Assembly (NCBI GenBank): GCA_021414225.1
Contig: JAIOOX010000004.1
Location: 66,206 to 130,205 of the forward strand
Direction: 5' to 3'
DNA: 64,000 nucleotides
Source of the DNA: Candidatus Vogelbacteria bacterium
GTDB taxonomy: Bacteria > Patescibacteriota > Minisyncoccia > Phycocordibacterales > XYD1-FULL-46-19
The translations under genes were made by a program, and so were the position numbers. Numbering within the stretch: position 1 is the first letter of the stretch; each line of letters opens with the position of its first letter. Shown here piece after piece: positions 487 to 15,660 of this stretch. The notes under the pieces were generated by a model. The model was not told the origin of the DNA. It did not search any database and was given only the letters and a program-made list of their open reading frames with translations.

Positions 487-1971
487 CTATAACTTCTTGC
501 CTAGTGGATGAAGACTTTTAAAGCCCAACCAAAAATAGATTCCATACCAAACAACCACCACCACCAAAGGTAAGGTCGGCACCAAAAAAGCAGCAAAAGG
601 TAAAAGCGACCACCATTTCACAATCATTAAAATATAAGACAGGGTCACCAAACTAAATCCGGCGAAAATAAAACTAAACCAATGACCAACAAAACCAATT
701 AGACCAGTCAAAAAAACTACCAACATTGTTAGGGGTACCATTGGTAAAACCAACAAGTTAACTGGTAAGGCCACAATTGATAACTGTCCCACCTTATATA
801 ACAACCACGGTAAAACAAATAACTGAGTGGCTAAAGTAGAACCAACAATATCTCTCAAACCAAATCTTTCCGGCACTCTAGTTAAATAAGGTTCCAAAAT
901 AGTGGTGCCATAAATCAAACCAATAGTCGACAAAAAAGATAACTGAAAACCGACATCAAAACCTAAGACCAGTGGGTTATAAAAAATCATCCCAAAAGCC
1001 GCCAAGACGAGGGCCACTGTAATATCATAGTTTCGCCCTGTCGCCCTAGCCATCAACACCAAAAGAGCCATAACTGAAGCCCGGATCACCGTCGAACCAC
1101 CACCAACCATGACCGCAAATAAAATTATACTAAAACCACCCACCGAGAGAGCCACCAACCGCGGTAAAAACAAACCAGCTAATTTCAAAATATTTTCCGC
1201 TACAATTGTAATATTGTAGCCAGACAAAACAACAATGTGGACTAGGCCCACCCGTCTGAAATCTTCTTGCCGGTCTTTACCTAACCCTTGCTTAGCACCA
1301 ACCACTAGGCCACTAGCCAAAGAGACTGCCGGCTCGGGTATGTCACGCTCTAAGTTACTAATAAAACTTTGTTTAATTGTAAATAAAATTCGGACTGGCG
1401 ACCACCACTGACCGGCTTTTATTTTCTTCACCTCTCCCCGACTGATTAGGTACTGGACTCCTTGAACTTTCAGATAATTAACATAATCAAATTCTCGACC
1501 AGTATCCGTTAGAAAATTTTTAGGTTTAGACAACTGCCCAACCACTTCTACTTTGTCACCGTACTCTACTTGGGAACCCAAAGGTACCACCACCAACACT
1601 GATTGATCCAAATTATTTGGCCTTACCAACAATCGTAGTCCAGTCTCACGTTCATCTGGTTCATCAACTATTTGGCCAGTTACAGAAATATTCTGACCAA
1701 GCTTTGACTCCAAACTGGCGACTGGTTGAATTTGGGTTTGATTAAATCTAAAACCACCCACACAAAAACCCAACAACAATAAACCAAGAAACACTAATTT
1801 GAAACTGGTTTGAAAATAAGACACTACTATCAACCCAAAACCAATCAGTAATATTAAGCCTAAATAATAGTTACCTACAAGCTGATAACTAGACCAAACA
1901 ACCCCTAGGAAAAAACCACTAATTGTCAGTCCGACACTCCACCGTAAATCATTAATCGCCAGCCCCACCAT
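487..1971 (-). CDS. comEC: ComEC/Rec2-family competence membrane protein. It has the DUF4131-like N-terminal TM region, an OB fold and the polytopic competence domain, but no MBL domain.
   Basis: 494 aa. N-terminal TM helices are followed by a soluble OB-like segment (VTGQIVDEPDERETGLRLLVRP...), then about 8 TM helices typical of the ComEC competence domain. It is adjacent to a separate MBL-domain gene. Confidence 0.6.
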   Translation of the reverse strand: MVGLAINDLRWSVGLTISGFFLGVVWSSYQLVGNYYLGLILLIGFGLIVVSYFQTSFKLVFLGLLLLGFCVGGFRFNQTQIQPVASLESKLGQNISVTGQIVDEPDERETGLRLLVRPNNLDQSVLVVVPLGSQVEYGDKVEVVGQLSKPKNFLTDTGREFDYVNYLKVQGVQYLISRGEVKKIKAGQWWSPVRILFTIKQSFISNLERDIPEPAVSLASGLVVGAKQGLGKDRQEDFRRVGLVHIVVLSGYNITIVAENILKLAGLFLPRLVALSVGGFSIILFAVMVGGGSTVIRASVMALLVLMARATGRNYDITVALVLAAFGMIFYNPLVLGFDVGFQLSFLSTIGLIYGTTILEPYLTRVPERFGLRDIVGSTLATQLFVLPWLLYKVGQLSIVALPVNLLVLPMVPLTMLVVFLTGLIGFVGHWFSFIFAGFSLVTLSYILMIVKWWSLLPFAAFLVPTLPLVVVVVWYGIYFWLGFKSLHPLGKKL

Positions 1972-1992
1972 TTTTAAATTCTAAAGTAAAAA

Positions 1993-2418
1993 CTAACTAT
2001 TTGTATCCATTGCCTCATTAGCTAGTCGATCCGCTTCTTTGTTTTCCTCTCTAGGTATTTCTACGACTGAAAAGTTTGGTATGTATTTTCCAAGTAAATC
2101 TTGAACCACCAACCATAAATCTTTCATCCGTGGTTCTTTTATTTTGTACTTTTTGGTAATCTGCCTAGCCACCAACTGAGAATCCATTCGCAACTCCACC
2201 TGAGCCAACTTTAACTCTTCCATTCCAACCACCTCTTTAATTTGCTCCAAGCCAAAAATCACCCCATGATACTCGGCTTCATTGTTGGTTGCCTCCCCAA
2301 GGGCCTTGGAGGCCTCGTGGATCATCTGTCCAACCTCATCTGTAATCACGATACCTACCCCTGCATTTCCAGGATTACCTCGTGCTCCTCCGTCAGTATA
2401 TAAAATATATTTCTTCAT
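1993..2418 (-). CDS. rnhA: Ribonuclease HI
   Basis: YTDGGARGNPG and TNNEAEY motifs; about 140 aa. Confidence 0.8.
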   Translation of the reverse strand: MKKYILYTDGGARGNPGNAGVGIVITDEVGQMIHEASKALGEATNNEAEYHGVIFGLEQIKEVVGMEELKLAQVELRMDSQLVARQITKKYKIKEPRMKDLWLVVQDLLGKYIPNFSVVEIPREENKEADRLANEAMDTNS

Positions 2419-2427
2419 CTTGTTATT

Positions 2428-4185
2428 TTAAACTACCGATCTAATATCAACAATCCGCAGTCTCAATTCAGGATAATTCTTAAAATTAGACTTCTCCAAG
2501 TTGGCCAATAGATCAATCCGGTGCCCAGAAATCAGGGCTACGTCCGGAAAATTATGTCCATTGTGACCATCAAACTCTTCACTTTCATCTAAAACCGGCG
2601 GACAACCAAAAAAGCCAATCGCTACCAACTTCTTACCGTTAACCTGAAACGATAATTCAATATGAATACCGCCATTGCCAAACGTTTTCACTCCCCCAAT
2701 CTCAATATCTCGAAACAAAAAAACTGGTTTCGGATTATCAATCCCAAACGGCGACAATCTGTCCACTTCTTTAAAAGTGTCCCAGGTCACTTCACTCAAA
2801 TCAAGCTCGCTGTCGATCATTTGCTCGATCACCACTTCTTCTTTCGGTAACTTGCCATAGGCCTCAATCAGTCGATTTTCTAATTCATCTTCTTTTTCTG
2901 GCGCCAGTGAGAAACCACCTGCATGAATATGTCCACCCATGTCATTAAAAAAATCTCGTCCTCCAGCCGCCATCATCAGCTCCACTAAATTAACCGAGCC
3001 ATCCGACCGACAAGAACCTTTGATTAGACCATCGCCATTTTTACCCCAGACAAATGATACTCGATTGTATTTTTCGGTAATCCGAGCTGACGCCAAACCA
3101 AGTACTCCCAATCCCCAACTAGGGTCACCTACTACCACCACCGGTGCCACTTCCTTATGAGCAAAGTGATCAGTTACTGTTTGCATAATAGTTTCCACCA
3201 ACACCTTTCGCTGTTTATTATTTTTCTCGAGATTGGTAGCAATCGTTCGAGCCACTGAATCACTGTCAGTCGTCAGAAGTTCATAAGCTTCCGAACCATG
3301 AGTCATTCGACTAGCCGAGTTGATCCGCGGACCAATCATAAAACCAATATCATCTTCCGCAATCACTCCTAATTTTAATTTAAGTACGTGAACCAAAGCC
3401 AAGAGTCCCGGTCGCCGGGTTTTATTGAGTACTCGCAAACCAAAGTTCACCAGCACTCGATTTTCTCCCACTAGCGGCACCATGTCCGACACGGTCGAGA
3501 CAGCCACCAAATCCAGCAACCACTTCTCCCAACCAGGGACAATATCAAAACCACCTCGAGCGATCAGGCCTTGAACAAGTTTAAAAGCCACCCCCGCTCC
3601 ACATAAGTTTTTGTTGGGATACACATCGCCCTCCCGTTTCGGATCAACAATTGCTAACGCTTCCGGCAAGATTTCGTGAGGTAAGTGGTGATCAGTAATA
3701 ATCACATCAACACCAAGCTCTCGCGCTTTGACCGATTCCGCAAAAGCCGTAATTCCACAATCGATAGTAATGATTAATTTCACACCATCAGCGGCAAATT
3801 TATCAACTTGGATTAAATTAAGACCGTACGACTCTAAATGCCGATCAGGAATATAGGGTACAAAGTTTATAAAACCAACTTGTTTAAAAAATGTCGCCAA
3901 AATCGCTGTTCCCGGCACACCATCCGCATCGTAGTCACCAAAAATCACTATTTTTTCGTTGTTTTTGATCGCCAGCAAAATCCTCTCCACCGCTTTATCC
4001 ATATCGGTCATCAGAAACGGGTCATGAATATGCTTCTCGTAATCTGGATTTAAAAAGGGGTCCGCTTCATCAATATCTGTAATCCCGCGGTTGTATAAAA
4101 GTTTGGCCACCAACTCCGGCAAGGGAGCAAGTTTTTTCTCAGCTTGTTTAGTAATAGCCGGTCTCAGTGACCATTTTTTTGCCAT
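2428..4185 (-). CDS. recJ: Single-stranded-DNA-specific exonuclease RecJ (DHH/DHHA1 family)
   Basis: IVIFGDYDADGV, ITDHH and DHHA1-like C-terminal region; 585 aa. Confidence 0.8.
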   Translation of the reverse strand: MAKKWSLRPAITKQAEKKLAPLPELVAKLLYNRGITDIDEADPFLNPDYEKHIHDPFLMTDMDKAVERILLAIKNNEKIVIFGDYDADGVPGTAILATFFKQVGFINFVPYIPDRHLESYGLNLIQVDKFAADGVKLIITIDCGITAFAESVKARELGVDVIITDHHLPHEILPEALAIVDPKREGDVYPNKNLCGAGVAFKLVQGLIARGGFDIVPGWEKWLLDLVAVSTVSDMVPLVGENRVLVNFGLRVLNKTRRPGLLALVHVLKLKLGVIAEDDIGFMIGPRINSASRMTHGSEAYELLTTDSDSVARTIATNLEKNNKQRKVLVETIMQTVTDHFAHKEVAPVVVVGDPSWGLGVLGLASARITEKYNRVSFVWGKNGDGLIKGSCRSDGSVNLVELMMAAGGRDFFNDMGGHIHAGGFSLAPEKEDELENRLIEAYGKLPKEEVVIEQMIDSELDLSEVTWDTFKEVDRLSPFGIDNPKPVFLFRDIEIGGVKTFGNGGIHIELSFQVNGKKLVAIGFFGCPPVLDESEEFDGHNGHNFPDVALISGHRIDLLANLEKSNFKNYPELRLRIVDIRSVV

Positions 4186-4214
4186 AGGACGTGATTATAG
4201 CATATACTTAGTTC

Positions 4215-4574
4215 ATGACTGATTGTATATTTTGCAAAATAGTTGCCGGAGAAATCCCATCACACAAGGTTTACGAGAATGATAACTTCCTAGCCTTTTT
4301 GGATATTCATCCTCACTCCCCTGGTCATGTCCAAGTAATACCCAAGACTCACTACCGCTTCGTCTGGCAGGTACCAAATGCCGGCGACTATTTTGAAGTG
4401 GCTAAAAAGATAGCTTTAGCTCAACAAAAGGCTTTTAATACTGACTGGATCCTCAGCAAAATCGTTGGTGACGAAGTACCACACGCTCATATCTGGGTCT
4501 TCCCTAATGATAAAGTTAAAGGCGACAAAATGGATTTCGAAAACAATAAGCAAAATATTATAGCTAATTTATAA
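4215..4574 (+). CDS. HIT-family hydrolase (histidine triad)
   Basis: CIFCKIVAGEIP...HVQVIPK and the HAHIWVFP histidine triad; 119 aa. Confidence 0.8.
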   Translation: MTDCIFCKIVAGEIPSHKVYENDNFLAFLDIHPHSPGHVQVIPKTHYRFVWQVPNAGDYFEVAKKIALAQQKAFNTDWILSKIVGDEVPHAHIWVFPNDKVKGDKMDFENNKQNIIANL

Positions 4575-4576
4575 TT

Positions 4577-4954
4577 ATGACTAAAAAAATACTCTTGTTA
4601 ATCAGTTTGATTGTGATCTTGGGTGGATCATATTTAATTTACAAAACGTCCATTCCTTTTAAGTCAGATGACCAAATTATTACTTATACAGACACATCTC
4701 TGCGGGAAATTATAATCCAAAATAAAAGTCTGGTATGTAATACGGGATACGCTTCCGGCCTTAGTGGTTTTAAAGCTACTATTTACATTAAAAATCAAAC
4801 AGCGGAAATAGAGTATAAGGGTTCCGCTTTTAACCCAGAGACTGAATCAACAGAAATAACTCAAGAAAACTATTCCATCGACCTAAATAAACCAGACAAC
4901 AAAAATTTATTTGATATAGACAATCAATATTTTACCTATAAGTGCACGAGGTGA
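4577..4954 (+). CDS. Hypothetical secreted/membrane-anchored protein
   Basis: N-terminal signal/TM (KKILLLISLIVILGG). Its start overlaps the HIT gene's stop in operon style. Confidence 0.4.
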   Translation: MTKKILLLISLIVILGGSYLIYKTSIPFKSDDQIITYTDTSLREIIIQNKSLVCNTGYASGLSGFKATIYIKNQTAEIEYKGSAFNPETESTEITQENYSIDLNKPDNKNLFDIDNQYFTYKCTR

Positions 4955-5029: not shown

Positions 5030-5062
5030 AAAGCCGGAAGAATATTTATTCTTCCGGCTTGG
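5030..5062. terminator. Hairpin terminator shared by the convergent + gene (4577..4954) and the minus-strand rSAM-peptide operon
   Basis: agccggaaga-atatttat-tcttccggct, a 10-bp perfect stem. The minus strand is T-rich after the stem. Confidence 0.5.
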
Positions 5063-5075
5063 CGCTATCTATAGA

Positions 5076-5234
5076 TTACTTACCTTCGAGATGACTCGGG
5101 GTATCACTCGAAACGGAATTAGGTTTCGGTCTGGGCACTAGCCGGCCTTTCGAGCCAGACACAATGCACAACCGCACTTTTTCTCCGCTAGGGCGAGGCA
5201 CAATTCGCCCTTTGGAGCCCGACAAAACACCCAT
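5076..5234 (-). CDS. Short peptide ORF (52 aa) with two copies of the SGSKGRxVPRP motif. Candidate precursor peptide of the adjacent radical SAM enzyme. Not in the ORF track.
   Basis: Minus-strand SD agaagggaggtg (5240..5251), a 5-nt spacer, ATG at 5234, stop TAA at 5078..5076. Translation: MGVLSGSKGRIVPRPSGEKVRLCIVSGSKGRLVPRPKPNSVSSDTPSHLEGK. Confidence 0.55.
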   Translation of the reverse strand: MGVLSGSKGRIVPRPSGEKVRLCIVSGSKGRLVPRPKPNSVSSDTPSHLEGK

Positions 5235-5266
5235 TACAACACCTCCCTTCTAGATGAGATCAAAAG

Positions 5267-5362
5267 CTACTTGGAATTCGACCCGCTCGTTACCTTTTCA
5301 GGTCGAGTGATCAAATTCGGCCGAGGAACCACTCGCCCTTTGGATCCTGAGACTGTCGGCAT
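5267..5362 (-). CDS. Short peptide ORF (31 aa) with the SGSKGRVVPRP motif. Candidate precursor peptide. Not in the ORF track.
   Basis: Minus-strand SD aaggaggtg (5368..5376), a 5-nt spacer, ATG at 5362, stop TAG at 5269..5267. Translation: MPTVSGSKGRVVPRPNLITRPEKVTSGSNSK. It starts about 30 nt after the rSAM stop. Confidence 0.55.
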   Translation of the reverse strand: MPTVSGSKGRVVPRPNLITRPEKVTSGSNSK

Positions 5363-5391
5363 ACTATCACCTCCTTTCTAATCTGATTCAT

Positions 5392-6357
5392 TCACGAAAG
5401 TATACGCGACCAAACGCGCATCTCTTGGGTGAAAAGTTTGTTCACCGACTGACTATGCCCAGCAGGCATCATGGCCGGCTCGGCTTCGGTGCCCGTGCGA
5501 CCATCAAGAGTTGGCAGGTAAAACTTCCCATCCCAACGCAGATTGAGCTCACCTGACCACATCAAGCTTTGCGGACGATATACCAACTGCGTCCCAGACG
5601 ACAACTCTACTATCAAAGCATCGCCTTCTATCCTATCTGGTTTCCAAGGCAACGTCCGCAGGACTGGAATCAGATGTTCGATGTGAGCCAGGTCATACAG
5701 ATTGATAATTTTCGGCACCCCATTAAGAAGAGTTTCAAAAGCCATCCGGCATGACTTCTCGTCTGAAAAGTCAGCAGTCTCTCGCTCCACCACCGCGTCA
5801 GCTGTTGAGATCATGGCTACTGACAACGGAACATCATTATCAGCGAGCATCACTTCAAACTCGGACCACCGACCCAGGTTAGTAGGAGAAAGGCAAGATG
5901 AGATGATCGGATCAAACCCTTGATCTTTCAGCTTGAGCACAGCGCCCCAAGCTTTATCGAAAGCCCCCTCTTTGTTTCTCTGGATATCGTGGTCCGCTCT
6001 CACTCCATCAACTGAGATGTTGATATAGTCGAGTTGCCGAAGTAGTTCTATAGGAGCGTTGAAAATAGTATATCCATGATCAACAATTCCTATTTTCTCT
6101 ACCCCTGCTTCAAGACAAGCCTGGAGAAAAGCGAGACCTTTCGGGGTCAGCATTCTCCCGGCATAACCAACAGTGGCACCCCAACTAGCAATGAGCTTCG
6201 CCTGACGAGTCCAGTCATTAACTGTCTTTTCTTCCAAGTCGTGATGCCAAAAGCAATGACGACAAGACAGATTGCAAACCGCCACGATAGTAGCCACGAC
6301 TCGAAGTGGGTTGATAGACCCGTCGAGTTTATTTTCCAACCACCGATCAATCAACAT
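5392..6357 (-). CDS. Radical SAM enzyme of the AnSME/PqqE-like (SPASM/twitch-related) core type, apparently lacking the auxiliary Cys clusters
   Basis: CNLSCRHC (CxxxCxxC) at residues 28-35. ISVDGVRADHDIQRNKEGAFDKAWGAV matches the vSlDG...HD..Rg motif of peptide-modifying rSAMs. Only about 3 further Cys downstream. 321 aa. GC is elevated relative to neighbours. Confidence 0.8.
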   Translation of the reverse strand: MLIDRWLENKLDGSINPLRVVATIVAVCNLSCRHCFWHHDLEEKTVNDWTRQAKLIASWGATVGYAGRMLTPKGLAFLQACLEAGVEKIGIVDHGYTIFNAPIELLRQLDYINISVDGVRADHDIQRNKEGAFDKAWGAVLKLKDQGFDPIISSCLSPTNLGRWSEFEVMLADNDVPLSVAMISTADAVVERETADFSDEKSCRMAFETLLNGVPKIINLYDLAHIEHLIPVLRTLPWKPDRIEGDALIVELSSGTQLVYRPQSLMWSGELNLRWDGKFYLPTLDGRTGTEAEPAMMPAGHSQSVNKLFTQEMRVWSRILS

Positions 6358-6507
6358 GACGTCTCTCCTCTAAAATAGTGTTGTTAATTGCAAAGATCCT
6401 TCTGGAAACATCATACATAAATCAACAAGTCAATACTGACAAATAACATAGCCCACCAAGAAATAGTCAAAATAACGTTATTTTACATTGTAAAATAACT
6501 AATCTAT

Positions 6508-6536
6508 TTGACGAAAAAATCGTCACTTTGTATACT
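6508..6536 (+). promoter_or_regulatory. Sigma70-like promoter (TTGACG-17-TATACT) for the downstream regulator gene; predicts a leaderless transcript
   Basis: ttgacg (6508-6513), a 17-nt spacer, tatact (6531-6536). ATG at 6543 is 7 nt after the -10 box. Confidence 0.4.
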
Positions 6537-6542
6537 AAACTA

Positions 6543-7364
6543 ATGTTTATTGAAGAAGAATCCAAGTTACTTGGTCTAACCTCTAAAGAAAAGAGGCTCT
6601 TAACCGGTCTTTCAGCTACTCCTATAAGTGTCTCAGCCTTAGCTAAACAGACCAAAATAAAACGCACCAGCCTCTATTCCCTACTAGACCATCTCTCTAG
6701 TAGAGGCTTAGTATCTAAAACCCTTCAGGGTAAGCGTTGGTATTGGTTTGCCACTCCAGCGAAACAGCTGCAAGAAAAGTTTTTTTCTTTGGCCGAAAAT
6801 CACCGCACTACTAGTGAAGTTCGAGAACATGAGATTGGGATTATTGCCTCCCAAGACAGCGAGTATAAAATTTACCGAGGCAAGAATAAACTAATTACGA
6901 TTTATACTGAATTAGCTAATTTACCAAGACATAGCCGCTTATATGGAATACAGCCAAACATTTCAGTCGGCAGTGTCTTGAAACACTTACCTGATGAAAA
7001 TCTTATTACTATTAATGAGAGTTTTAAGAAACGTAATATTATTGTAGAAGCTCTTTTGCAGGAAGATTTTCTAACTGCCTACGCTGGCATACTTAAGCAA
7101 AAGAAACCCAAAAAAGAAATCTTACAATCATATGGAAATCGATTAGCAGTAACAACTTACATCCCTAAGGCTACCCTTAACTTTGATTCAGAAATAATTT
7201 TTTATGGAAATATTGTTTTATTCCTCAACTGGCAAGAGTTGGTTGCTATTGTTATTAAAAATAAAGATATCGTTGGTATTATGAAAGCCTTATTTGAGTT
7301 AGCAAAACTAAGCGGTGATCGTGTTGATCAAAACCCCCATGTAGAAAAACTGTTGGGCAAGTAA
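6543..7364 (+). CDS. Winged-helix (TrmB/MarR-like) transcriptional regulator, divergent from the rSAM operon
   Basis: N-terminal LGLTSKEKRLLTGLSATPISVSALAKQTKIKRTSLYSLLDHLSSRGLV resembles a TrmB-type wHTH. The ORF track begins at TTG 6528; ATG 6543 (MFIEEES...) fits the promoter better. Confidence 0.45.
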   Translation: MFIEEESKLLGLTSKEKRLLTGLSATPISVSALAKQTKIKRTSLYSLLDHLSSRGLVSKTLQGKRWYWFATPAKQLQEKFFSLAENHRTTSEVREHEIGIIASQDSEYKIYRGKNKLITIYTELANLPRHSRLYGIQPNISVGSVLKHLPDENLITINESFKKRNIIVEALLQEDFLTAYAGILKQKKPKKEILQSYGNRLAVTTYIPKATLNFDSEIIFYGNIVLFLNWQELVAIVIKNKDIVGIMKALFELAKLSGDRVDQNPHVEKLLGK

Positions 7365-7367
7365 ACT

Positions 7368-8435
7368 TTATTTCTTAAGCGCTTCCAGCCCAGGCAATGT
7401 TACCTCGGCTAAAAATTCGAGCATCGCACCACCACCAGTGGAGATAAAGTCTATTTGTTCATTAATATTCAAACCTTCTATCGCGGTCACCGTATCGCCT
7501 CCACCAATGATTGAGTAAGCCTTAGACTTAGCGATCGCTTTAGCAATAAGAGTTGTAGCTTGGCCGAAACCTACTTCAAAATTACCTTGAGGACCATTCC
7601 AGACCACTAGTTTAGCTTTACTAATTTTATCAGCCACAAAGGCTACCGACTGCGGACCAATATCAACGATCTTTTCTTGTTTACCGGTCGCTTCAGGCAT
7701 TTTAATCGCATCACCCTTAGGACCACTAGTCACCACATCGATCGGCAACACCACATTTTTATATTTCAAAATCTCAGCCAAACCTTTAGCCTCGCGATCC
7801 ACTACCGACTTCCCCACTTCATAGCCTTCTTTCAGAAAAAGAGCGTTGGCCAAAGCGCCACCAACAAACACAGTATCAGCTAATTTCGCAAAACGTTTGA
7901 TCAAAGGCAATTTGGTCGAAAACTTTACCCCACCTAACACAAACACAAAGGGGTGTTGTGGTTTGAAAGCTTTAGATAATTCTTTAACTTCTTTTTCGAC
8001 AAGGAGACCAGCATAAGCGGGCAACAACTTTGGCAGTGACACCACTGAAGCATGTTTACGGTGACAAACTGCAAAAGCTTCATTCACATAAATATCTGCC
8101 TCTTTGGCTAATTGCTTAGCAAAAGTTTTATCGTTTTTCTCTTCACCAGGATTGGAGCGAAGATTTGGGAGGAAAATTAAATTACCATAAGGCAACTTTT
8201 CACTCACGTATTCAACAATAGGTTCAATCGAGGCTTTCTCGTCACCAAGATGAGTCGCTAAGACAAGCGTCGCTCCACCGGCGACCAAATAAAGAAGAGT
8301 GGGAAAAGATTGATCAATCCGATAGGTATCCATAATTTTTCCATTCTTAATCGGCACATTCCAATCCACTCGGACAAACACTCGTTTACCAGCTAAATCT
8401 TTTTTCTTCAATTGTTTAATACTTCGTAGTTCCAT
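7368..8435 (-). CDS. pgk: Phosphoglycerate kinase
   Basis: RVDWNVP N-terminal signature and GGGDTV / GGGAMLEFL C-terminal motifs. 355 aa, compact. Confidence 0.85.
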   Translation of the reverse strand: MELRSIKQLKKKDLAGKRVFVRVDWNVPIKNGKIMDTYRIDQSFPTLLYLVAGGATLVLATHLGDEKASIEPIVEYVSEKLPYGNLIFLPNLRSNPGEEKNDKTFAKQLAKEADIYVNEAFAVCHRKHASVVSLPKLLPAYAGLLVEKEVKELSKAFKPQHPFVFVLGGVKFSTKLPLIKRFAKLADTVFVGGALANALFLKEGYEVGKSVVDREAKGLAEILKYKNVVLPIDVVTSGPKGDAIKMPEATGKQEKIVDIGPQSVAFVADKISKAKLVVWNGPQGNFEVGFGQATTLIAKAIAKSKAYSIIGGGDTVTAIEGLNINEQIDFISTGGGAMLEFLAEVTLPGLEALKK

Positions 8436-9223
8436 TATTTTGTTTGAGTTTTAGCTACCACTTCACTGAGTCGTAAAATTTCACCAAAGTTTTTGGGATC
8501 AAGACAAGCCCTACCAACTAGCAAGCCGTCAGCTTTGCCAACACCCAAGAAACCCTCAGCATTTTTCGGACTAACTGAACCACCATATAAAACTTGAATA
8601 GTGTGAGCGGCTTCTTTACCAGCCAAACCACTAATCACTTTACGAATAAATAAGGCGTTGTGTAAAAAATTATCAGGTGTATCCACTCCAGTCGCATCTT
8701 TACCTATCGCCCAAACTGGTTCGTAGGCAATGACAATATCGGCAAATTGCGTTTTCTTTAATCCAGCCAAGCTAAGTTCCAATTGATTTTTTAAAATATT
8801 TAAATAGTCTCCATGAGTATCACGAACCTTTTCACCAATACACAAGATAACTGACAAACCAGCACTCAAAGCATTTTTAACTTTCACATTGATTTTCTCA
8901 TCCGTGTCACCACTCGCCCGCTTTTCGGAATGGCCGACAATCGTGTATTCGGCGCCGGTGTATTTGATCTGACCAGCGGATAGCGAACCAGTGAAAGCGC
9001 CAACTCCTTTTTCCATTGATATATCTTGAACTCCTAAGTGAAAATTTTTACTGGAACGATGATTCAAAAAGCCCAAGAAGACCGCTGGCGGACAGATTAC
9101 CGTCTCAGTATTAACCAGCTTTAGGGTTAATTTTTTAGTTTTTTGATACAAATCCTTCGCTTCCCGAGGAGTCTCAGGGTTCATCTTCCAATTCGCCACA
9201 ATTAGTTTTTTTGCCTTAGCCAT
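8435..9223 (-). CDS. tpiA: Triosephosphate isomerase
   Basis: VANWKMN, AYEPVWAIG and YGGSV motifs. Start taken at MAKAKK (ATG 9223) rather than the longer ORF. The stop overlaps the pgk start by 1 nt. Confidence 0.85.
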   Translation of the reverse strand: MAKAKKLIVANWKMNPETPREAKDLYQKTKKLTLKLVNTETVICPPAVFLGFLNHRSSKNFHLGVQDISMEKGVGAFTGSLSAGQIKYTGAEYTIVGHSEKRASGDTDEKINVKVKNALSAGLSVILCIGEKVRDTHGDYLNILKNQLELSLAGLKKTQFADIVIAYEPVWAIGKDATGVDTPDNFLHNALFIRKVISGLAGKEAAHTIQVLYGGSVSPKNAEGFLGVGKADGLLVGRACLDPKNFGEILRLSEVVAKTQTK

Positions 9224-9387
9224 GTGGGTATTGTAGCACAACAGACCAATGGTCAAAACTGAGATTTTCAGAGACGAGCGAAACTAGTTCTGTAATAAAC
9301 CCTTGCGTAACTGTCGGCTAGCCGGTTTTTGCCTCTAGTATTTAGACTGGTACTCCAGTAAGGCAAAATAGCCGACGTGGAGCAGAA

Positions 9388-9421
9388 GAAAACCACCCGC
9401 TGGGGTGGTTTTCTGTGGTTT
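9388..9421. terminator. Hairpin terminator downstream of the minus-strand 577-aa gene
   Basis: aaccaccc-gctg-gggtggtt plus a T-rich tail. Confidence 0.5.
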
Positions 9422-9444
9422 GGAGCAGAAGCTAGTTGAGTGGT

Positions 9445-11178
9445 TTATTCAACCTCTTTCCACCCTGTAATATTCCACCCACCTGACGGACCACTAACAA
9501 AATTTTGATTGGCTAAACCAGAATCATAAACAATACTGGCATTATTAGAGAGAACAATTCGATTAGCTGTTGCTTCTTTGGCCCCAGAGTTATTAGAAAA
9601 AGTAATAGTGCCATTTTGCGCATTAAGAATCACCGTCCCAGCGTTGTTAGACACTGTAATAGCACTATCACTTGGGCTAGTGGTTAAGAGCATGATATAG
9701 CTCCCAGTCTGTCCAGAACCAGCAAAAGTGGCATTATTAGAAATCGAAATCGTGCCATCAACCACTATCACACCACTACCCGCACCATAACCAGATCCCA
9801 GACGAACACTGGTGTTATTAGAAACAGTAAAATTACCAGTCACCCACAATGTACCGTTAACCACCAAGGTTTTATTGTTAGACAAAGATAGATCACCCAC
9901 AATCTTCCTAGAACCAAGATTAGTTGTCGATGTGGTAGCCGTAAAATTACCATTCCATACTCCTCCCGCCTGAGCTCCCGCCTTCCAAGCCTCAATATTA
10001 GCTTCGGATACGGGCCAGTTTTGGGCCACCGGATCAGCTTGTGAAGTGTTGCAAGCTTTATTATTACCAGAGCCAGTCTGACAATAAAGACTGCCAGCAA
10101 TAGTAGAGTTGGTGACCGTATGAGCTTGGGCATTCCCCACTCCACTTTGGCCAACAGTAACCCCTGTAATAGTGGAGTATAAACCGCCTAGATATAATTT
10201 AAAGTAACCGTCTAGAGTGGCTGGACTAGTGGCTGACCAGGTACCACCATTTTGACCAATCTTAGATTGACCACCACTATAACCGTCATCATTAGCCCCA
10301 ATAACATAATAAGCTGAGCTACTCTGAGTAGCATTATCAACCACCAACCAATAAGTGGTTCCGGGTACTAAGATCGGATTGGAGTTGAAGGTGGTGGTAA
10401 TCCAGCCGTAATTAGTAGTCACCAAAGAAGAATTCAAAGTGCCTGTAGTAATAGAAGTAGATCCAGGTTTGCCAGCATTATCATTTCGAATATAAACGGT
10501 CGCACTAGCTGGGCTACCAACCTTTTTTAAATAAAGATCCACCTTGTTAACAGGTGAGGATGTGCTAACAATAAAACTTTGAGCGAAGTCTTGAGTCCCA
10601 GAAGTATTGCGGAAGTTGATACTGTTAGACGGACTAGTTGGAGTATCATTGCTTTGATCAGTCGAAAGAGCTGAGCTGTTAGCCGCAATTGCTGTTCCTC
10701 TAATATAGGAGCCGTTGGAACCGGTGATACTACTATTACTATAAACGTTACCGATTACCCCAGAGTTGTTAGACAAAACAAAACCACCCTGACCAACTTG
10801 CACCCCGTAATTGAAAGCAATTCCTGTACCTGTCACAGCTTGAGCTTGAATTTTACGAATATAATTAGTGATATTTCCTAAAGCGGTGATGGTTTTACTA
10901 TTACCAGAGTCGGTCACCGCGGTATTGGTTTGGTTACCATCTAAAGACAGGACTTCGTTACTAGACACAGTTAGGCCATTCTTCAGTCGATACAAAACAT
11001 CTTCTACTCCTGATTCAGCCAAATGAAAACTAGAGAGACTTGAGTTGATCGAAGTGGCATCTTTGGAACTTCTGACACCTGGATTGACAGAGCCAGTCAT
11101 CAATAACATTCCCGCCAACAAAACAAAGAGTACCGAACCAATCATCGCTTGACCTGCTTGGTCTTTGTTGTTTTTCAT
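9445..11178 (-). CDS. Large secreted Ser/Thr/Asn/Gly-rich protein with an N-terminal TM anchor. Possible pilus-associated tip/adhesin protein.
   Basis: 577 aa. N-terminal hydrophobic segment with no canonical prepilin cleavage motif. Beta-rich low-complexity composition. It is the first gene downstream of the pseudopilin genes. Confidence 0.4.
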   Translation of the reverse strand: MKNNKDQAGQAMIGSVLFVLLAGMLLMTGSVNPGVRSSKDATSINSSLSSFHLAESGVEDVLYRLKNGLTVSSNEVLSLDGNQTNTAVTDSGNSKTITALGNITNYIRKIQAQAVTGTGIAFNYGVQVGQGGFVLSNNSGVIGNVYSNSSITGSNGSYIRGTAIAANSSALSTDQSNDTPTSPSNSINFRNTSGTQDFAQSFIVSTSSPVNKVDLYLKKVGSPASATVYIRNDNAGKPGSTSITTGTLNSSLVTTNYGWITTTFNSNPILVPGTTYWLVVDNATQSSSAYYVIGANDDGYSGGQSKIGQNGGTWSATSPATLDGYFKLYLGGLYSTITGVTVGQSGVGNAQAHTVTNSTIAGSLYCQTGSGNNKACNTSQADPVAQNWPVSEANIEAWKAGAQAGGVWNGNFTATTSTTNLGSRKIVGDLSLSNNKTLVVNGTLWVTGNFTVSNNTSVRLGSGYGAGSGVIVVDGTISISNNATFAGSGQTGSYIMLLTTSPSDSAITVSNNAGTVILNAQNGTITFSNNSGAKEATANRIVLSNNASIVYDSGLANQNFVSGPSGGWNITGWKEVE

Positions 11179-11211
11179 ATTGTTTTTATTATAGCAAAAT
11201 TTTTTCTCAGA

Positions 11212-11727
11212 CTAATATCCTCCACGCACCACGGCGGTGTCAGAAAAAGTACCAGTTGAGGAGGCCCGACCGCCAGCAGTCACTGTTAGATCAAAATTAA
11301 TCCCCTCCGAACTAGCGGTTGAAAAACGAGTAGCCATAAATTTTGATATTTTAGTACTACTAGAGGTCAGGGCTTGAGCAGTGTTCACTCCAGTTTGGAC
11401 AAACAAGGTACTAGTCGCGACAAAAAACTTAACAGTCGTTGGGCTACCGCCACTATCGTTTGTATTAAGTTGCAAAGTACTGAGATTAGCCCCTAAAACA
11501 CTATTAGCCACATCAATAGAAGTAGCTTGCCTGGTTTCCAGGACCACTCTCATTAAAGTATTCTGCCCATCAGTCCCCGCCATGCGACGATTGTAAGCCA
11601 AAAGAAAAGCGTTGGTCGTAGACAGTAAAATTAAACTAACCACGAGCGAAACAATCACAAACAAAGCTAAATAAATTAAAGTTTCTAGTAGGGTAAAACC
11701 AGCCTGTTGATTAAGTTTATTGGCCAT
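11212..11727 (-). CDS. Type IV pilin-like protein (prepilin-type N-terminal cleavage/methylation domain)
   Basis: MANKLNQQAG|FTLLETLIYLALFVIV: class III signal with Gly at -1, Glu at +5, and a hydrophobic helix. Confidence 0.7.
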   Translation of the reverse strand: MANKLNQQAGFTLLETLIYLALFVIVSLVVSLILLSTTNAFLLAYNRRMAGTDGQNTLMRVVLETRQATSIDVANSVLGANLSTLQLNTNDSGGSPTTVKFFVATSTLFVQTGVNTAQALTSSSTKISKFMATRFSTASSEGINFDLTVTAGGRASSTGTFSDTAVVRGGY

Positions 11728-11728
11728 C

Positions 11729-12232
11729 TTAATTAGCAAAAAGATTAGTTAAATAACCACTAGTCACCACTGTGGAAGTAGCCAAGCGGTAAGGCCAAGC
11801 CACCGTGACTGTAATCAATTTAGTGTTAGTGTCCAATGTTCCAGACGGAGCAATCCGACTATTAACATCACGATAAACTGGCGCTAAAGAAATAGTTCTA
11901 TAAAAGGGGCTATTGGTTTGAACGGTAGTGGTTGCCTGCCAAGCACCAGCATTAAAACGTAAATAATAATTTCTATTGGTAGTCAGCGGGGCCACGTTGG
12001 CAGTCCAACCACTATCACGTAAAACCCGAACCACCTCCAGACCCTGGTCAGCCAGTAAGCTAGCTTGTCGTTTTTTGAGCGTCTGACCTTCAAACACCAC
12101 CATAGTTTGAATAGTCATCACAATTCCGCCCAGAATCAAAGAAATAATTGCAATCGCAATCACCGCTTCTACTAAAGAAAAGCCAGCTGATTGATTGAGA
12201 TTAAGTCGATTACTTTTAAAAAAAAGAAGCAT
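11729..12232 (-). CDS. Type IV pilin-like protein (pseudopilin)
   Basis: ...NLNQSAG|FSLVEAVIAIAIISLILGGIV prepilin motif. Confidence 0.7.
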   Translation of the reverse strand: MLLFFKSNRLNLNQSAGFSLVEAVIAIAIISLILGGIVMTIQTMVVFEGQTLKKRQASLLADQGLEVVRVLRDSGWTANVAPLTTNRNYYLRFNAGAWQATTTVQTNSPFYRTISLAPVYRDVNSRIAPSGTLDTNTKLITVTVAWPYRLATSTVVTSGYLTNLFAN

Positions 12233-12236
12233 GATT

Positions 12237-12695
12237 TTATAATTGACCAGCTACTCCACTGGCCGAGATTGTAACCGTTGCTACTTTGGTCATATCAGAT
12301 AACGACTTAATAGTAATATAACCAAACTGAGTCGTCTCGCCGGTTAGACGTTTAAAATAAACATTGGTCGCTCCGCCAACTAAATAGGGTTGAATTGTTA
12401 AATCACCAGACGAGGCAATGACTTGATTGTCACTAGCTGAAGAATTAAAGCTACTACCACTAAATAAAGTAATGGATGTGCTAGCAATATTGACCCCATA
12501 AGAGGTGTCATTATAGCCAGCGACCGTTTTGGTTCGAGCCTGACTAAGAGCGGAGATTACATTGGTCGCCATATCGCTAACCGCATGCCGGGAACGGTAA
12601 GCTGAGAGACTGACAAAAACAGTCACAGCCACTAAAGTTACAATCGTCATCGCGATTATTACTTCCAGCAACGAAAAACCTTTATTGTTAGTCAT
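12237..12695 (-). CDS. Type IV pilin-like protein (pseudopilin)
   Basis: MTNNKG|FSLLEVIIAMTIVTLVAV prepilin motif. Start trimmed to the Met at 12695 to avoid overlap with pilC. Confidence 0.7.
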   Translation of the reverse strand: MTNNKGFSLLEVIIAMTIVTLVAVTVFVSLSAYRSRHAVSDMATNVISALSQARTKTVAGYNDTSYGVNIASTSITLFSGSSFNSSASDNQVIASSGDLTIQPYLVGGATNVYFKRLTGETTQFGYITIKSLSDMTKVATVTISASGVAGQL

Positions 12696-12697
12696 TT

Positions 12698-13912
12698 TTA
12701 TAGTGCTTCGGTTAGTGAATACATTGGACCAATCATCGAAATAGCAAAGAAACCAACCGCACAACCAATCAAGACTAAAAGAACTGGCTCAACAATGGTT
12801 GAGAGATTCTTGGTCTTGTTATCGACTTCTCCTTCAAAAAAGATAGCCCCTCGTAATAACATAGCCGCCAACTCACCGGTCTCTTCCCCAACTTCCGCCA
12901 TCTCACCAACCAATGGCGGAAAGAGATCTTCACGCGCTTTAAAAACCTGAGAGACCAAAACGCCCTTCTCAATCGCTTCAATTGAACCTAGTAATAAATT
13001 TTGATATTCCGTATTGTTAACCACCGATGAAGTGATTTTTAAACTCTCAGTTAGACTGACCCCAGCTGAAATCAAAGCTGATAAATTTCTCATCACCAAG
13101 GCTGAATTTAATTCTTGAACCATCACACCGATCACTGGCAATTTCAAAGCCAGCCGACTAATCATTATTTTACTAACTTTTGTTTTTCGCCAAAAAGAAA
13201 AACCAACCACTGAGGCTAAAGTCACAACAATGACAATCAAGTAATAATTAACAAAAAAGTTACTCAGACCAATGATTGCTCTAGTGGACAACGGTAAGTC
13301 TAATTTTAATTCTTGAAAAGTAGCAGTCAAAGCCGGTACCACAAAGATCATCATCAAGATCCCAATCAAGATAATGACCACAATAATAATGGCCGGATAA
13401 ATCATCGCTCCGCGAATCTTGCGTTTCAATTCATAACTTTTGTCGAGCTGTTCGCCGATCAATTTGAGCGAACCAGGCAAAGTACCAGACTCCTCTCCCG
13501 CCGCGACCATGGCCGCAAAGACACTTGGAAAAACAGCTGGCTGTTCTAACAGGGCCATCGATAAGGACTTACCCGCGTTCACTTTGGCAATGATTTTGGC
13601 AATTGATTTTTTTAAAAATTTATTCCTAGTTTGTCGTTCAAACACAGATAAAGACCGAGCTAGGGCTAGTCCCGCCTCAAGCATAGCCGCTAGATTTTGG
13701 GCAAACATTATTTTTTCTCTTAAAGACACTCGCCCTATAGTTAAACCCCACCTCTGTAACAAACCAGACTCTGTTTGGTTAACTTCTGCTAATGAAGTAA
13801 CAATATAACCTTCGTTACGAAGAGCTAGAGCGAGAGCTTGCCGGTCAAAAGCCTCTCGAGTCCCTTCGATACTCTGACCAGTCAAGTTTTTGGCTTTAAA
13901 TTTAAATTCCAT
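12698..13912 (-). CDS. pilC: Type IV pilus assembly platform protein PilC (GspF family)
   Basis: 404 aa with two T2SS-F repeats. N-terminal MEFKFKAKNLTGQSIEGTREA is typical of PilC. Confidence 0.85.
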   Translation of the reverse strand: MEFKFKAKNLTGQSIEGTREAFDRQALALALRNEGYIVTSLAEVNQTESGLLQRWGLTIGRVSLREKIMFAQNLAAMLEAGLALARSLSVFERQTRNKFLKKSIAKIIAKVNAGKSLSMALLEQPAVFPSVFAAMVAAGEESGTLPGSLKLIGEQLDKSYELKRKIRGAMIYPAIIIVVIILIGILMMIFVVPALTATFQELKLDLPLSTRAIIGLSNFFVNYYLIVIVVTLASVVGFSFWRKTKVSKIMISRLALKLPVIGVMVQELNSALVMRNLSALISAGVSLTESLKITSSVVNNTEYQNLLLGSIEAIEKGVLVSQVFKAREDLFPPLVGEMAEVGEETGELAAMLLRGAIFFEGEVDNKTKNLSTIVEPVLLVLIGCAVGFFAISMIGPMYSLTEAL

Positions 13913-13914
13913 AA

Positions 13915-15660
13915 TTACTCAGAGACCACTCGCAAAACTTCTTCTATGGTAGTTAGACCTTGAACTGATTTAAAAATCCCATCTTCAAGCATCGTCAACA
14001 TCCCCTCAGCCTTACCTCTAGTTTCAATCGCTTCCGCTGTTTTACCCTGCATCACCAGTTCCTTAATAGTTAAGGTCATTGGTAATATCTCATGAATACC
14101 AACCCGACCAGAATAACCATCTTCCGATTCTTCGGTCGCTTTTGGTTTATAAAATGGAATACTCGCCCACTCATCTTTTGGACCAACAATATTTTCTTGT
14201 CTAAGGGCTTCTAAAACTCTAGTTAGATCCACCTTTTTACCTAGCGAATCAATCTCGGCCGAGCTCAAGTTATATTTTTCCTTTGATTCACACAATCGAC
14301 GAACTAAACGCTGAGCAATAATGACATTGATAGTCGACACCACCAAAAAAGGCTCTGTCCCCATATCTAAGAGGCGTGGGATGGTGCCAGCAGCGGAGTT
14401 GGTGTGCAAGGTAGAGAGAACCAGGTGACCAGTCAATGACGCATTGATAGCTAAACTTGCTGTCTCGCCATCACGGATTTCCCCGACCATAATAATATCC
14501 GGGTCTTGGCGAACCAGAGAACGTAGGCCATTAGAAAAAGTTAGACCAATATCTGGCTTAACTTGAGTTTGATTAATACGAGCAATTTGGTATTCAATCG
14601 GGTCTTCAATGGTAGAAATATTAACATCGGGTGTATTTAACATCTGAAGCATGGTGTAGAGAGTGGTTGATTTACCAGAGCCGGTCGGTCCAGTCACCAA
14701 AATCATACCCGTACTAGCTCTCATTGCTTTATGGAGTCGCTCAAGACCCTCTCCATGAAACCCACTACCTTCTAGAGAAAAACCTTTAACCGAATCAGGT
14801 AACAGACGCATCACAATCTTCTCGCCAAAGTAAGTCGGTAAGGTAGAGACCCGGAGAGCAACATTTTGACCAGAGAGATCGGTTTTAAAACGCCCATCTT
14901 GTGGTAAGCGTTTTTCATCAAGGCGCAGATTGGCTAGCACTTTAACCCGAGCGGTTAGACCGGGAGCAGCCGACTTAGGCAAAATCATAGCGTCGTGCAG
15001 TAGACCATCAATACGGTAACGAATAACTAAATCTTTTTCGAATGGTTCAATATGAATATCAGAGGCTTTTTGTGACACCGCATGAGACAAAAGGGTGTCG
15101 ACAATACGAACCACTGGCAAATCTTCAGCGATTTTTTTTAATTCTTCTGGTGAAGTCGGACCTAGGTCGCTAGTCGAGGATAAACTACTAGCTTCCTTTT
15201 GAATCAGGTCCCCAAACTCAGCTTTTAAACTTTTCTGATACTGAAGTAAGCTATGTTTGATAGATTCAGAATCAGTTAAACGAGGTAAAACCTTAACCCC
15301 TACTCCCTTGCGAATGAAATCAATCGCCTGTAAATCGCCCGGATCTAGCATGGCCACTTCGAGACCTTGGTCGGACTTAGAGTAAGCAATAATATTGTGA
15401 CGGCGAGCAACTGGTTCGGGGATCAAAGTCAAAATAGTACGATCAATTTTATTTTTTTTCAAATCAACATACGGTATACCTAAAACATAAGCTTTAGCTT
15501 TTCGCCAATCGTCTTCGGAAATTTTACCATTACTAACCACTAGATCGGCGAACTTATTTTCATCCCCCCCTGCTTCAGTCCACAACAAATCAATATCAGC
15601 TTTACTGATCAAACGAGACTCGACTAAAAATTTTTTGAGTTCTAGCACGTCAGTGTGCAT
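13915..15660 (-). CDS. pilB: Type IV pilus assembly ATPase PilB (GspE family)
   Basis: Walker A VTGPTGSGKSTTLY, GspE_N region and Asp/His boxes; 581 aa. Confidence 0.9.
   Translation of the reverse strand: MHTDVLELKKFLVESRLISKADIDLLWTEAGGDENKFADLVVSNGKISEDDWRKAKAYVLGIPYVDLKKNKIDRTILTLIPEPVARRHNIIAYSKSDQGLEVAMLDPGDLQAIDFIRKGVGVKVLPRLTDSESIKHSLLQYQKSLKAEFGDLIQKEASSLSSTSDLGPTSPEELKKIAEDLPVVRIVDTLLSHAVSQKASDIHIEPFEKDLVIRYRIDGLLHDAMILPKSAAPGLTARVKVLANLRLDEKRLPQDGRFKTDLSGQNVALRVSTLPTYFGEKIVMRLLPDSVKGFSLEGSGFHGEGLERLHKAMRASTGMILVTGPTGSGKSTTLYTMLQMLNTPDVNISTIEDPIEYQIARINQTQVKPDIGLTFSNGLRSLVRQDPDIIMVGEIRDGETASLAINASLTGHLVLSTLHTNSAAGTIPRLLDMGTEPFLVVSTINVIIAQRLVRRLCESKEKYNLSSAEIDSLGKKVDLTRVLEALRQENIVGPKDEWASIPFYKPKATEESEDGYSGRVGIHEILPMTLTIKELVMQGKTAEAIETRGKAEGMLTMLEDGIFKSVQGLTTIEEVLRVVSE

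Follow-up and report, generated by a model that had tools for sequence, protein, structure and literature searches.

A radical SAM enzyme, short repeat-bearing peptides and a TrmB-like regulator as a candidate new peptide-modification module in Candidatus Vogelbacteria

A stretch of 64,000 nucleotides of contig JAIOOX010000004.1 (assembly GCA_021414225.1, Candidatus Vogelbacteria bacterium; forward strand, positions 66,206 to 130,205), hereafter called the window, carries a gene for a radical S-adenosylmethionine (SAM) enzyme followed by two short open reading frames (ORFs), pep1 and pep2, and faced by a divergent gene for a winged helix-turn-helix regulator. The radical SAM gene, one to three peptide genes and the regulator gene are co-conserved, and together they make up a well-supported candidate for a new family of radical SAM-modified peptides. 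The best explanation, to which a probability of about 0.72 was assigned, is that they constitute a self-contained three-part module which would produce an enzyme-modified ribosomal peptide, representing a new family similar to the peptides that are synthesised ribosomally and modified post-translationally (RiPPs). An earlier sequence-only reading had listed the radical SAM gene, two short ORFs with Shine-Dalgarno sites, three copies of a peptide motif, a terminator and the divergent regulator gene, all of which were recovered at the same coordinates (Table 1). Its proposal that these elements form a radical SAM-dependent RiPP-like cassette outside the described families is supported by the association of enzyme and peptides across loci.

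The enzyme family is, as far as the databases searched represent it, very rare. Among 5.8 billion proteins, a word-indexed search picked up only six homologues, with 89 to 44 % amino acid identity, and an exhaustive profile search run over 1.84 billion representatives gave approximately 20 clusters (at 50 % identity) of full-length matches with E values from 1e-104 to 1e-48, below which the scores fell sharply to generic matches to the radical SAM core. Scans of genomes and of Joint Genome Institute (JGI) metagenomes added one further locus, the fragment L011, and seven distant members, with 38 to 32 % identity to the window enzyme, were examined in context. The sole family member with a taxonomic label is from a Patescibacteria genome bin. 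No description of the enzyme family or of the peptides was found in Pfam (2025), NCBIfam (June 2026) or the searchable literature on the motif and on radical SAM peptides of the candidate phyla radiation (CPR).

One to three short ORFs bearing the motif were located immediately 3' of the radical SAM gene in 13 of 14 distinct metagenomic loci, in which enzyme identity ranged from 89 % down to 33 %. The contigs of the six close homologues and L011 all had such ORFs directly downstream. The peptides of L001 and L002 contain the units MSIVSGSKGRTVPRPGG...VISGPKGRAMPRPGG...IVSGPKGRPVPRPGG..., that of L004 is MAIRFGIYAGSKGHKPPRPTGN, those of L006 are MPACAGSKGKKSPRP... and MPGVAGSKGRKVPRPQK, and L011 encodes two peptides with two units each. 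L013 has a single 52-amino acid (aa) peptide with three units (AGSKGVEPPVP, SGSKGQKPPDP and AGSKGVEVPKP), and three tandem short ORFs are present in L014/L015 (...ATRSHFVPRP, ...TTKGCFVPRP and ...VTRGHNIPRP). L016 encodes IPAGTKGEKPPIA and IPAGTKGEKVPKP, L017 encodes MAVPAASKGCGVRVPTRK..., and L018 two peptides with [ST]CKGxxVPRP. The conservation in relatives on which the sequence-only reading had staked its proposal is thus present, with selection at the protein level.

As a control, occurrences of the pattern KG...PRP were counted: there were 31 in the downstream regions, which total 6.5 kb, and none in the remaining 385 kb of DNA, of which both strands were covered. A relaxed pattern gave 40 versus 4 occurrences, the latter 4 being the antisense of one peptide gene in redundant loci. 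Between loci, motif identity tracked enzyme identity (r = 0.80; Mantel test, 0 of 5000 permutations), and the peptide unit was more conserved than the enzyme. A full-peptide profile run against the 5.8 billion proteins matched six sequences, all of them short peptides of the motif type and two of them new (P0160 and P0161); in this search the motif was never found within a larger or unrelated protein. The general hallmark of RiPP loci, a precursor gene beside the gene of its modifying enzyme, is therefore seen here both in the adjacency and in the exclusiveness of the motif to these regions.

In the window the 11-residue motif SGSKGR[VIL]VPRP occurs three times across pep1 and pep2, and in its strict form it is absent elsewhere in the six-frame translation of the 64 kb, so that the recurrence is well out of reach of chance. 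The C-terminus of pep1 is a truncated, degenerate second repeat (VTSGSNSK, then the stop codon). The exact pep2 protein has also been called on an independent public contig of 17.9 kb (P0157), and a pep1 ortholog of identical layout is present in L007. As had been claimed, conservation lies at the peptide level and the DNA has diverged: the three copies have only 22 to 26 of 33 nt in common, and the differences are nearly all synonymous (proportion of synonymous differences, pS, 0.52-0.92; of non-synonymous differences, pN, 0.05-0.09). For 19 units pooled from 8 loci, pS was 0.77 and pN 0.18. Four residues of these units, namely G, K, G and the first P, never vary; codon positions 1 and 2 are fixed for them and position 3 uses all four bases, and the Arg of PRP is encoded by CGN as well as AGR codons at one motif position. 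The pooled values together with the scrambled third positions argue for selection on the translated product, and by this evidence the short ORFs are real genes under purifying selection at the protein level in every related locus. A strong Shine-Dalgarno sequence of the (A)GGAGG(TG) type lies 4 to 7 nt before the ATG in 16 of the 19 peptide genes of the 14 loci; the exceptions are L006b and L018b, which have none, and L011a, which has only GAAAGGAG.

Across loci the family-wide core is [KR]-[GS]-x3-P-x-P, set in a unit of approximately 14 residues (h-h-h-[SA]-G-[SP]-K-G-R-x-V-P-R-P) in which the residue right after KGR is V, I, L, P, K, T or A. No Cys position is conserved among the 19 peptides, many of which have no Cys at all. 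The motif has no aromatic position, and 11 of the 19 peptides lack F, W and Y altogether. Proline makes up 5-22 % of their residues, and all but one of the 19 carry a net charge of +4 to +10.

The enzyme has the CxxxCxxC [4Fe-4S]/SAM site of the radical SAM superfamily in a partial TIM-barrel core (C28-x3-C32-x2-C35), and a second block, I114-S-V-D-G...H123-D-I-Q-R127. In Pfam only the generic Radical_SAM domain was matched, and in NCBIfam the N-terminal core matched NirJ, SkfB, DynA, MftC and others at 15-35 bits, against cut-offs of 180-725 bits. The hidden Markov model (HMM) comparison that had been suggested as a check thus gave no match to a housekeeping or curated family, PflA-type activases and QueE included. 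The best solved-structure match of the family profile was SkfB (E 7e-16), covering the cluster motif and the ISxDG...HDxxR block. The sequence-only reading had recognised this block correctly but had called it typical of peptide-modifying radical SAM enzymes, which was too narrow: it is common to the SPASM/twitch-type group and is not specific to peptide modification, because the non-peptide enzyme BlsE has it too. C28, C32 and C35 are the only invariant cysteines in a 22-member alignment, and none of the 22 members matches the SPASM domain (PF13186). The enzyme accordingly has a single Fe-S site, and the lack of SPASM Cys clusters and of an aromatic motif residue, noted earlier for the window, is true of the whole family. 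In core fold and in the ISxDG/HDxxR block the enzyme is closest to the SPASM/twitch group, although it does not have the auxiliary-cluster ligands of that group. C81 was considered as an epimerase-type hydrogen donor and rejected, since it is invariant only among the seven closest sequences and is lost in the 22-member alignment.

The only deposited homologue, P0004 (NCBI MDQ5958010.1; L001, 6001-6975), is labelled 'Fe-coproporphyrin synthase'. The corresponding AhbD model, TIGR04545, has a cut-off of 500 bits but scored 19.9, with a match confined to the N-terminal core; identity with AhbD was therefore rejected, and the label, which is unsupported because of this score, is almost certainly an over-annotation that would mislead metabolic reconstructions. 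Identity with prokaryotic viperin (pVip) was also rejected, as the PADLOC match (E 4e-5) covered residues 23-123 only and viperin_w_prok scored 17.9 bits against a cut-off of 180. An anti-phage defence module was discarded because the PADLOC matches were to the generic radical SAM core only, and a phage-borne module because a scan of viral contigs gave only unrelated radical SAM proteins with 20-26 % identity.

The regulator scored 26.4 bits with the Pfam TrmB model (cut-off 25.6), and its family profile matched TrmBL2 (5bpd) at E 6e-11 and TrmB at E 1e-6 (residues 7-100). As in TrmB proteins, an N-terminal winged helix-turn-helix (wHTH) is followed by a dimerisation helix; an AlphaFold 2 (AF2) single-sequence model had a predicted local distance difference test (pLDDT) score below 50 over the C-terminal approximately 170 residues and was unusable past the wHTH. 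A divergent TrmB-like gene of 244-292 aa was found in all 12 loci with recovered upstream DNA, and no other conserved neighbour was found in the 14 loci. The regulator diverges faster than the enzyme: relative to the window proteins, identity is 59 % for the regulator and 65 % for the enzyme in L001, 31 and 45 % in L006, and 18 and 44 % in L004. A palindrome of the form TG(A/T)C(G/A)-N7-(C/T)G(T/A)CA, with a fixed half-site spacing of 12 bp, is present in 8 of the 12 intergenic regions, including those of the distant loci L013, L017 and L018, and we infer that its window copy, TGACG-N7-CGTCA, is a candidate operator of the TrmB-like regulator.

Two further elements of the intergenic region were considered. 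One, at 6478-6498 between the regulator and radical SAM genes, is a perfect palindrome whose arms are 10 bp long, TTATTTTACA-A-TGTAAAATAA, and is overlapped by a second palindrome, AAAATAACGTTATTTT; it was rejected as an operator since it is only partly conserved even in L007, the 89 % relative. A TTGACT-N12-TATGAT block at 6410-6433 is kept upstream of the radical SAM gene in the five closest loci, and is not claimed as a sigma-70 promoter because the 12-nt spacer is non-canonical and a promoter scanner made no call. In L013 a second gene of the TrmB family, 251 aa in length, is divergent from two small ORFs (79 and 74 aa) without a Pfam match (7614-9034), which may be another TrmB-regulated small-protein module, and L014 has a second TrmB gene at 83-886. 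In L016, and in this locus only, a Cys-rich 57-aa ORF with its own ribosome-binding site, MSNTEITIIVKKITSKEEWECDGCHQMTTAKPIDDEGGQYCFCSWQCLMRWEHARGY (1123-1296), lies between the TrmB-like gene and the radical SAM gene.

The radical SAM stop codon is separated from pep1 by 29 nt and pep1 from pep2 by 32 nt. No terminator was found between the three genes, the sole one following pep2, and the radical SAM/peptide region had no match to an Rfam family. The only Rfam matches in the 64 kb were four tRNA genes (RF00005, 29414-32884). A 125-aa ORF with a hydrophobic N-terminal segment and no Pfam or PADLOC match (4577-4954, plus strand) converges on the operon terminator; it was placed outside the module because it is absent in L002, where the HIT gene directly follows the peptide gene. 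The surrounding genes (487-4574 and 7368-15660) are housekeeping and competence/pilus genes, identified by ORF translation, with a Pfam scan for HIT only. The gene content of the window is compatible with a small-genome organism of the Patescibacteria type. Synteny with the HIT, phosphoglycerate kinase (PGK) and triosephosphate isomerase (TIM) genes is common to close relatives only. In distant loci a NUDIX hydrolase gene lies 1-3 kb from the cassette (L006, 9073-10420; L016, 3607-4845; L018, 5276-5791), adjoined in two of these three loci by a SAM-dependent methyltransferase gene; the window and L002 instead have a gene for a HIT-family hydrolase next to the cassette. This proximity could reflect residual synteny or a loose functional link.

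Table 1 Features of the module and its neighbourhood in the 64-kb window
Feature	Position	Strand	Description
Radical SAM gene	5392..6357	minus	321 aa; single CxxxCxxC cluster site C28/C32/C35
pep1 (peptide gene 1)	5267..5362	minus	31 aa, MPTVSGSKGRVVPRPNLITRPEKVTSGSNSK; one full motif unit and a degenerate second
pep2 (peptide gene 2)	5076..5234	minus	52 aa, MGVLSGSKGRIVPRPSGEKVRLCIVSGSKGRLVPRPKPNSVSSDTPSHLEGK; two motif units
Shine-Dalgarno of pep1	5368..5376	minus	AAGGAGGTG, near-consensus; ATG 5 nt further on
Shine-Dalgarno of pep2	5240..5247	minus	GGGAGGTG, near-consensus; ATG 5 nt further on
Motif copies	pep1 5350..5318; pep2 5222..5190 and 5159..5127	minus	
Intrinsic terminator	5031..5060	minus	13-bp stem, 4-nt loop, T-rich tail; ends the radical SAM-pep1-pep2 operon
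TrmB/TrmBL2-type winged-helix regulator gene	6543..7364	plus, divergent	273 aa from ATG; alternative TTG start 6528
Palindrome TGACG-N7-CGTCA, candidate operator	6509..6525	none	18 nt upstream of the regulator ATG
ComEC-like	487-1971		Left neighbour, by ORF translation
RNase H	1993-2418		Left neighbour, by ORF translation
RecJ	2428-4185		Left neighbour, by ORF translation
HIT	4215-4574		Left neighbour, by ORF translation
PGK	7368-8435		Right neighbour, by ORF translation
TIM	8435-9256		Right neighbour, by ORF translation
577-aa Ser/Thr/Asn-rich protein and pseudopilin-like genes	9445-12764		By ORF translation
PilC-like	12698-13912		By ORF translation
PilB-like ATPase	13915-15660		By ORF translation

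A scheme for the operation of the module can be proposed. The TrmB-like protein would bind TGACG-N7-CGTCA and gate the divergent promoters, and expression of the operon would yield the enzyme together with short cationic peptides in large excess. Each unit of approximately 14 residues would be recognised by the enzyme directly, without a leader or a RiPP recognition element (RRE), because the first unit starts so close to the Met and conservation is confined to the unit. SAM would be cleaved reductively to give a 5'-deoxyadenosyl radical, a hydrogen atom would be abstracted within the near-invariant [KR]-G-x3-P core, and general proteases would then cut the multi-unit precursors into units. 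The variable C-terminal tails could serve as followers. As no protease, transporter or immunity gene belongs to the module, the product may act intracellularly or exit by a general route.

As to the chemistry, there is a slight and tentative lean towards a redox-neutral outcome, epimerisation or rearrangement, over ring closure, because every member lacks ligands for an auxiliary cluster that could take up electrons and the substrate has neither a thiol nor an aromatic residue to serve as acceptor. Closure of an aliphatic ring from Lys/Arg to the Pro region, with the radical SAM cluster as oxidant, was judged only slightly less likely. A reaction type without precedent is a real possibility, and the chances that the modification is of a type not yet described for radical SAM RiPPs, while appreciable, are well below even.

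Some observations weigh against the assignment of the module to modified ribosomal peptides. Genomic contexts cover about half of the family clusters, those of P0008-P0010, P0013, P0014, P0016, P0017, P0020 and P0022, and those of the orphan peptides P0160 and P0161, lying outside the set. In L012, the contig of which ends 107 nt past the radical SAM stop codon, the one ORF seen is basic, 25 aa long and has no clear motif. Most characterised radical SAM RiPP clusters have a leader peptide, an RRE, a protease and an exporter. In the present peptides there is no leader, the first unit beginning approximately 4 residues after the Met (about residue 5); the enzyme has no N-terminal extension, and no PqqD match was found in Pfam at E values up to 1; and no protease, transporter/exporter or immunity gene was found as part of the module in the contexts examined. 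Auxiliary clusters are essential in the known thioether and C-C crosslinkers (PMC8326336), and the family has no ligands for them, while radical SAM peptide epimerases require a strictly conserved Cys as hydrogen donor (PMC8326336), and the family has no such Cys. Both candidate chemistries therefore miss a feature of their precedents. The fold evidence, moreover, is compatible with a non-peptide substrate as well.

This last point bears on the possibility that the enzyme acts on something other than the peptides, e.g. on a nucleotide, on a small molecule or on some other protein, the cationic peptides being, for instance, regulatory, nucleic-acid-binding or enzyme-activating. Such an arrangement was considered unlikely, since throughout the family enzyme and motif are strictly adjacent and diverge together, which is the pattern of an enzyme and its substrate, and since a tandem short motif with an invariant K-G and P resembles a modification site and not a binding partner; the viperin/pVip matches cover the generic radical SAM core only, at 17.9 bits versus 180. 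It is more improbable still that the peptides serve, like PqqA with PqqE or MftA with MftC, as the scaffold or precursor of a cofactor or other small molecule, one residue of the unit being modified and the modified residue or dipeptide then excised and used in the cell. Genes similar to PqqB/C/D/F or MftB/D/E/F are not conserved beside the module, there is no RRE partner, and the E-x3-Y and C-terminal VY motifs are both absent from the peptides. The length of the conserved unit (approximately 11-14 residues, with a conserved PRP tail) suggests, too, that the peptide is important in its own right.

That the short ORFs are not genes at all, and represent chance ORFs or a repeat acting at the DNA or RNA level, might be argued from their shortness and from the three of 19 peptide genes (L006b, L018b and L011a) without a good Shine-Dalgarno sequence. 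Against this stand the strong sites of the other 16, invariant first and second codon positions beside scrambled third ones, the use of CGN and AGR codons for Arg at one position, the lack of an Rfam match in the region, and a reading frame that is kept at 33-40 % enzyme identity, where the DNA alignment is lost. The codon-level analysis effectively refutes this explanation, which is hardly credible. The preferred reading remains that of a module in which the radical SAM enzyme would modify the peptides encoded next to it.

New peptide chemistry comes mainly from radical SAM maturases, and to our knowledge nearly all those characterised depend on auxiliary clusters, on leader recognition and on a thiol or aromatic substrate partner. 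The present family lacks auxiliary clusters, a leader and a thiol/aromatic partner yet has a sharply conserved motif, and its reaction can therefore not be read from precedents. A minimal test system would consist of a single enzyme of 321 aa and a synthetic substrate of 14 residues, e.g. the unit GIVSGSKGRLVPRP. Patescibacteria have tiny genomes and very little known specialised metabolism, and if such genomes retain a regulated module devoted to peptide modification, this suggests that its function matters to the way these organisms live.

Among known systems the closest relatives of the enzyme are SkfB, the twitch-type maturase of the sporulation killing factor, and SuiB/StrB, the SPASM-type maturase of streptide, with an identity of only 13-18 %. 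SkfB and SuiB have auxiliary Fe-S clusters, an N-terminal RRE and leader-bearing precursors, all of which are lacking in the window family; SkfB needs a core Cys and SuiB a core Trp, whereas the window peptides have no conserved Cys or aromatic residue. Membership of the sactipeptides or ranthipeptides was rejected, as there is no conserved donor Cys in the 19 peptides, and membership of the streptide/cyclophane group (triceptide, darobactin, WprB) as there is no aromatic position in the motif. Membership of the pyrroloquinoline quinone (PQQ)/mycofactocin systems was rejected for want of an RRE partner (PqqD/MftB), accessory enzymes and the precursor motifs.

In sequence, the enteropeptin core S-M-K-G-R-C-P-P-S resembles S-G-S-K-G-R-V-V-P-R-P in having K-G-R with prolines soon after. 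In enteropeptin, made from the precursor KgrA by the sactisynthase KgrC, Cys is linked to an alpha-carbon in a thioether (thiomorpholine) and Arg is converted to N-methylornithine, and the clusters reportedly carry accessory arginase and methyltransferase genes. A Cys directly after KGR and a SPASM/twitch enzyme are required there, and the window family has neither; enteropeptin clusters are regulated by Rgg/SHP and are found in Firmicutes, whereas the window module has a TrmB-like regulator. Membership of the enteropeptin/'KGR' group was therefore rejected, as the peptides lack that Cys, the enzyme is not of the SPASM/twitch type and none of the accessory genes is present in the contexts of the 14 loci. 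KgrC, of the 'KGR' radical SAM RiPP (RaS-RiPP) subfamily, belongs to the same paraphyletic radical SAM group as SkfB (PMC10288494).

Mechanistically, an enzyme with one cluster whose units are leaderless and flanked by V/I is best matched by the radical SAM peptide epimerases (PoyD/OspD; epipeptide EpeE/YydG). The proteusin epimerases of the PoyD/OspD type carry the radical SAM cluster only, and radical SAM peptide epimerases are leader-independent, need no substrate Cys or aromatic residue and typically act on Val/Ile (PMC8326336). Membership of the PoyD/EpeE-type epimerases was set aside since the conserved non-cluster Cys of these enzymes has no counterpart in the family.

The cationic pyrrhocoricin (K-G-S-Y-L-P-R-P) has the same K-G-x3-P-R-P spacing and, like the window peptides, a PRP motif. 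In class I proline-rich antimicrobial peptides (PrAMPs) the central Arg of PRP is a ribosome-contacting residue and PKP variants are tolerated; PrAMPs are defined by at least 25 % Pro and a net positive charge (PMC7736402). They are animal peptides, not modified by radical SAM enzymes, with a Tyr/Leu pharmacophore that window-type peptides lack. Membership was rejected on Pro content, and the resemblance is treated as a lead only. A far-reaching combination, and a long shot, would be a radical SAM enzyme of SPASM lineage that has lost its auxiliary clusters and, leader-free, places an unseen modification on the aliphatic/cationic K-G-x3-P-R-P unit (examples would be a C-C or C-N ring from Lys/Arg to Pro, or glycine-centred backbone chemistry), its products being PRP-type effectors of ultra-small Patescibacteria on their own or host ribosomes or chaperones.

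Repeat-core radical SAM RiPPs, freyrasin (PapB) and the triceptides among them, have several copies of a short motif in one precursor, as do the window peptides. In WprA/WprB, W-P-R is repeated in one precursor and each copy is processed by the same radical SAM enzyme (PMC11851443). These systems have aromatic or Cys/Asp-pair motifs, SPASM-type enzymes and leader-bearing precursors, none of which is true of the window module. As judged from its genes, the module thus works like a repeated-core radical SAM RiPP cassette but falls outside every RiPP class described and every curated family model.

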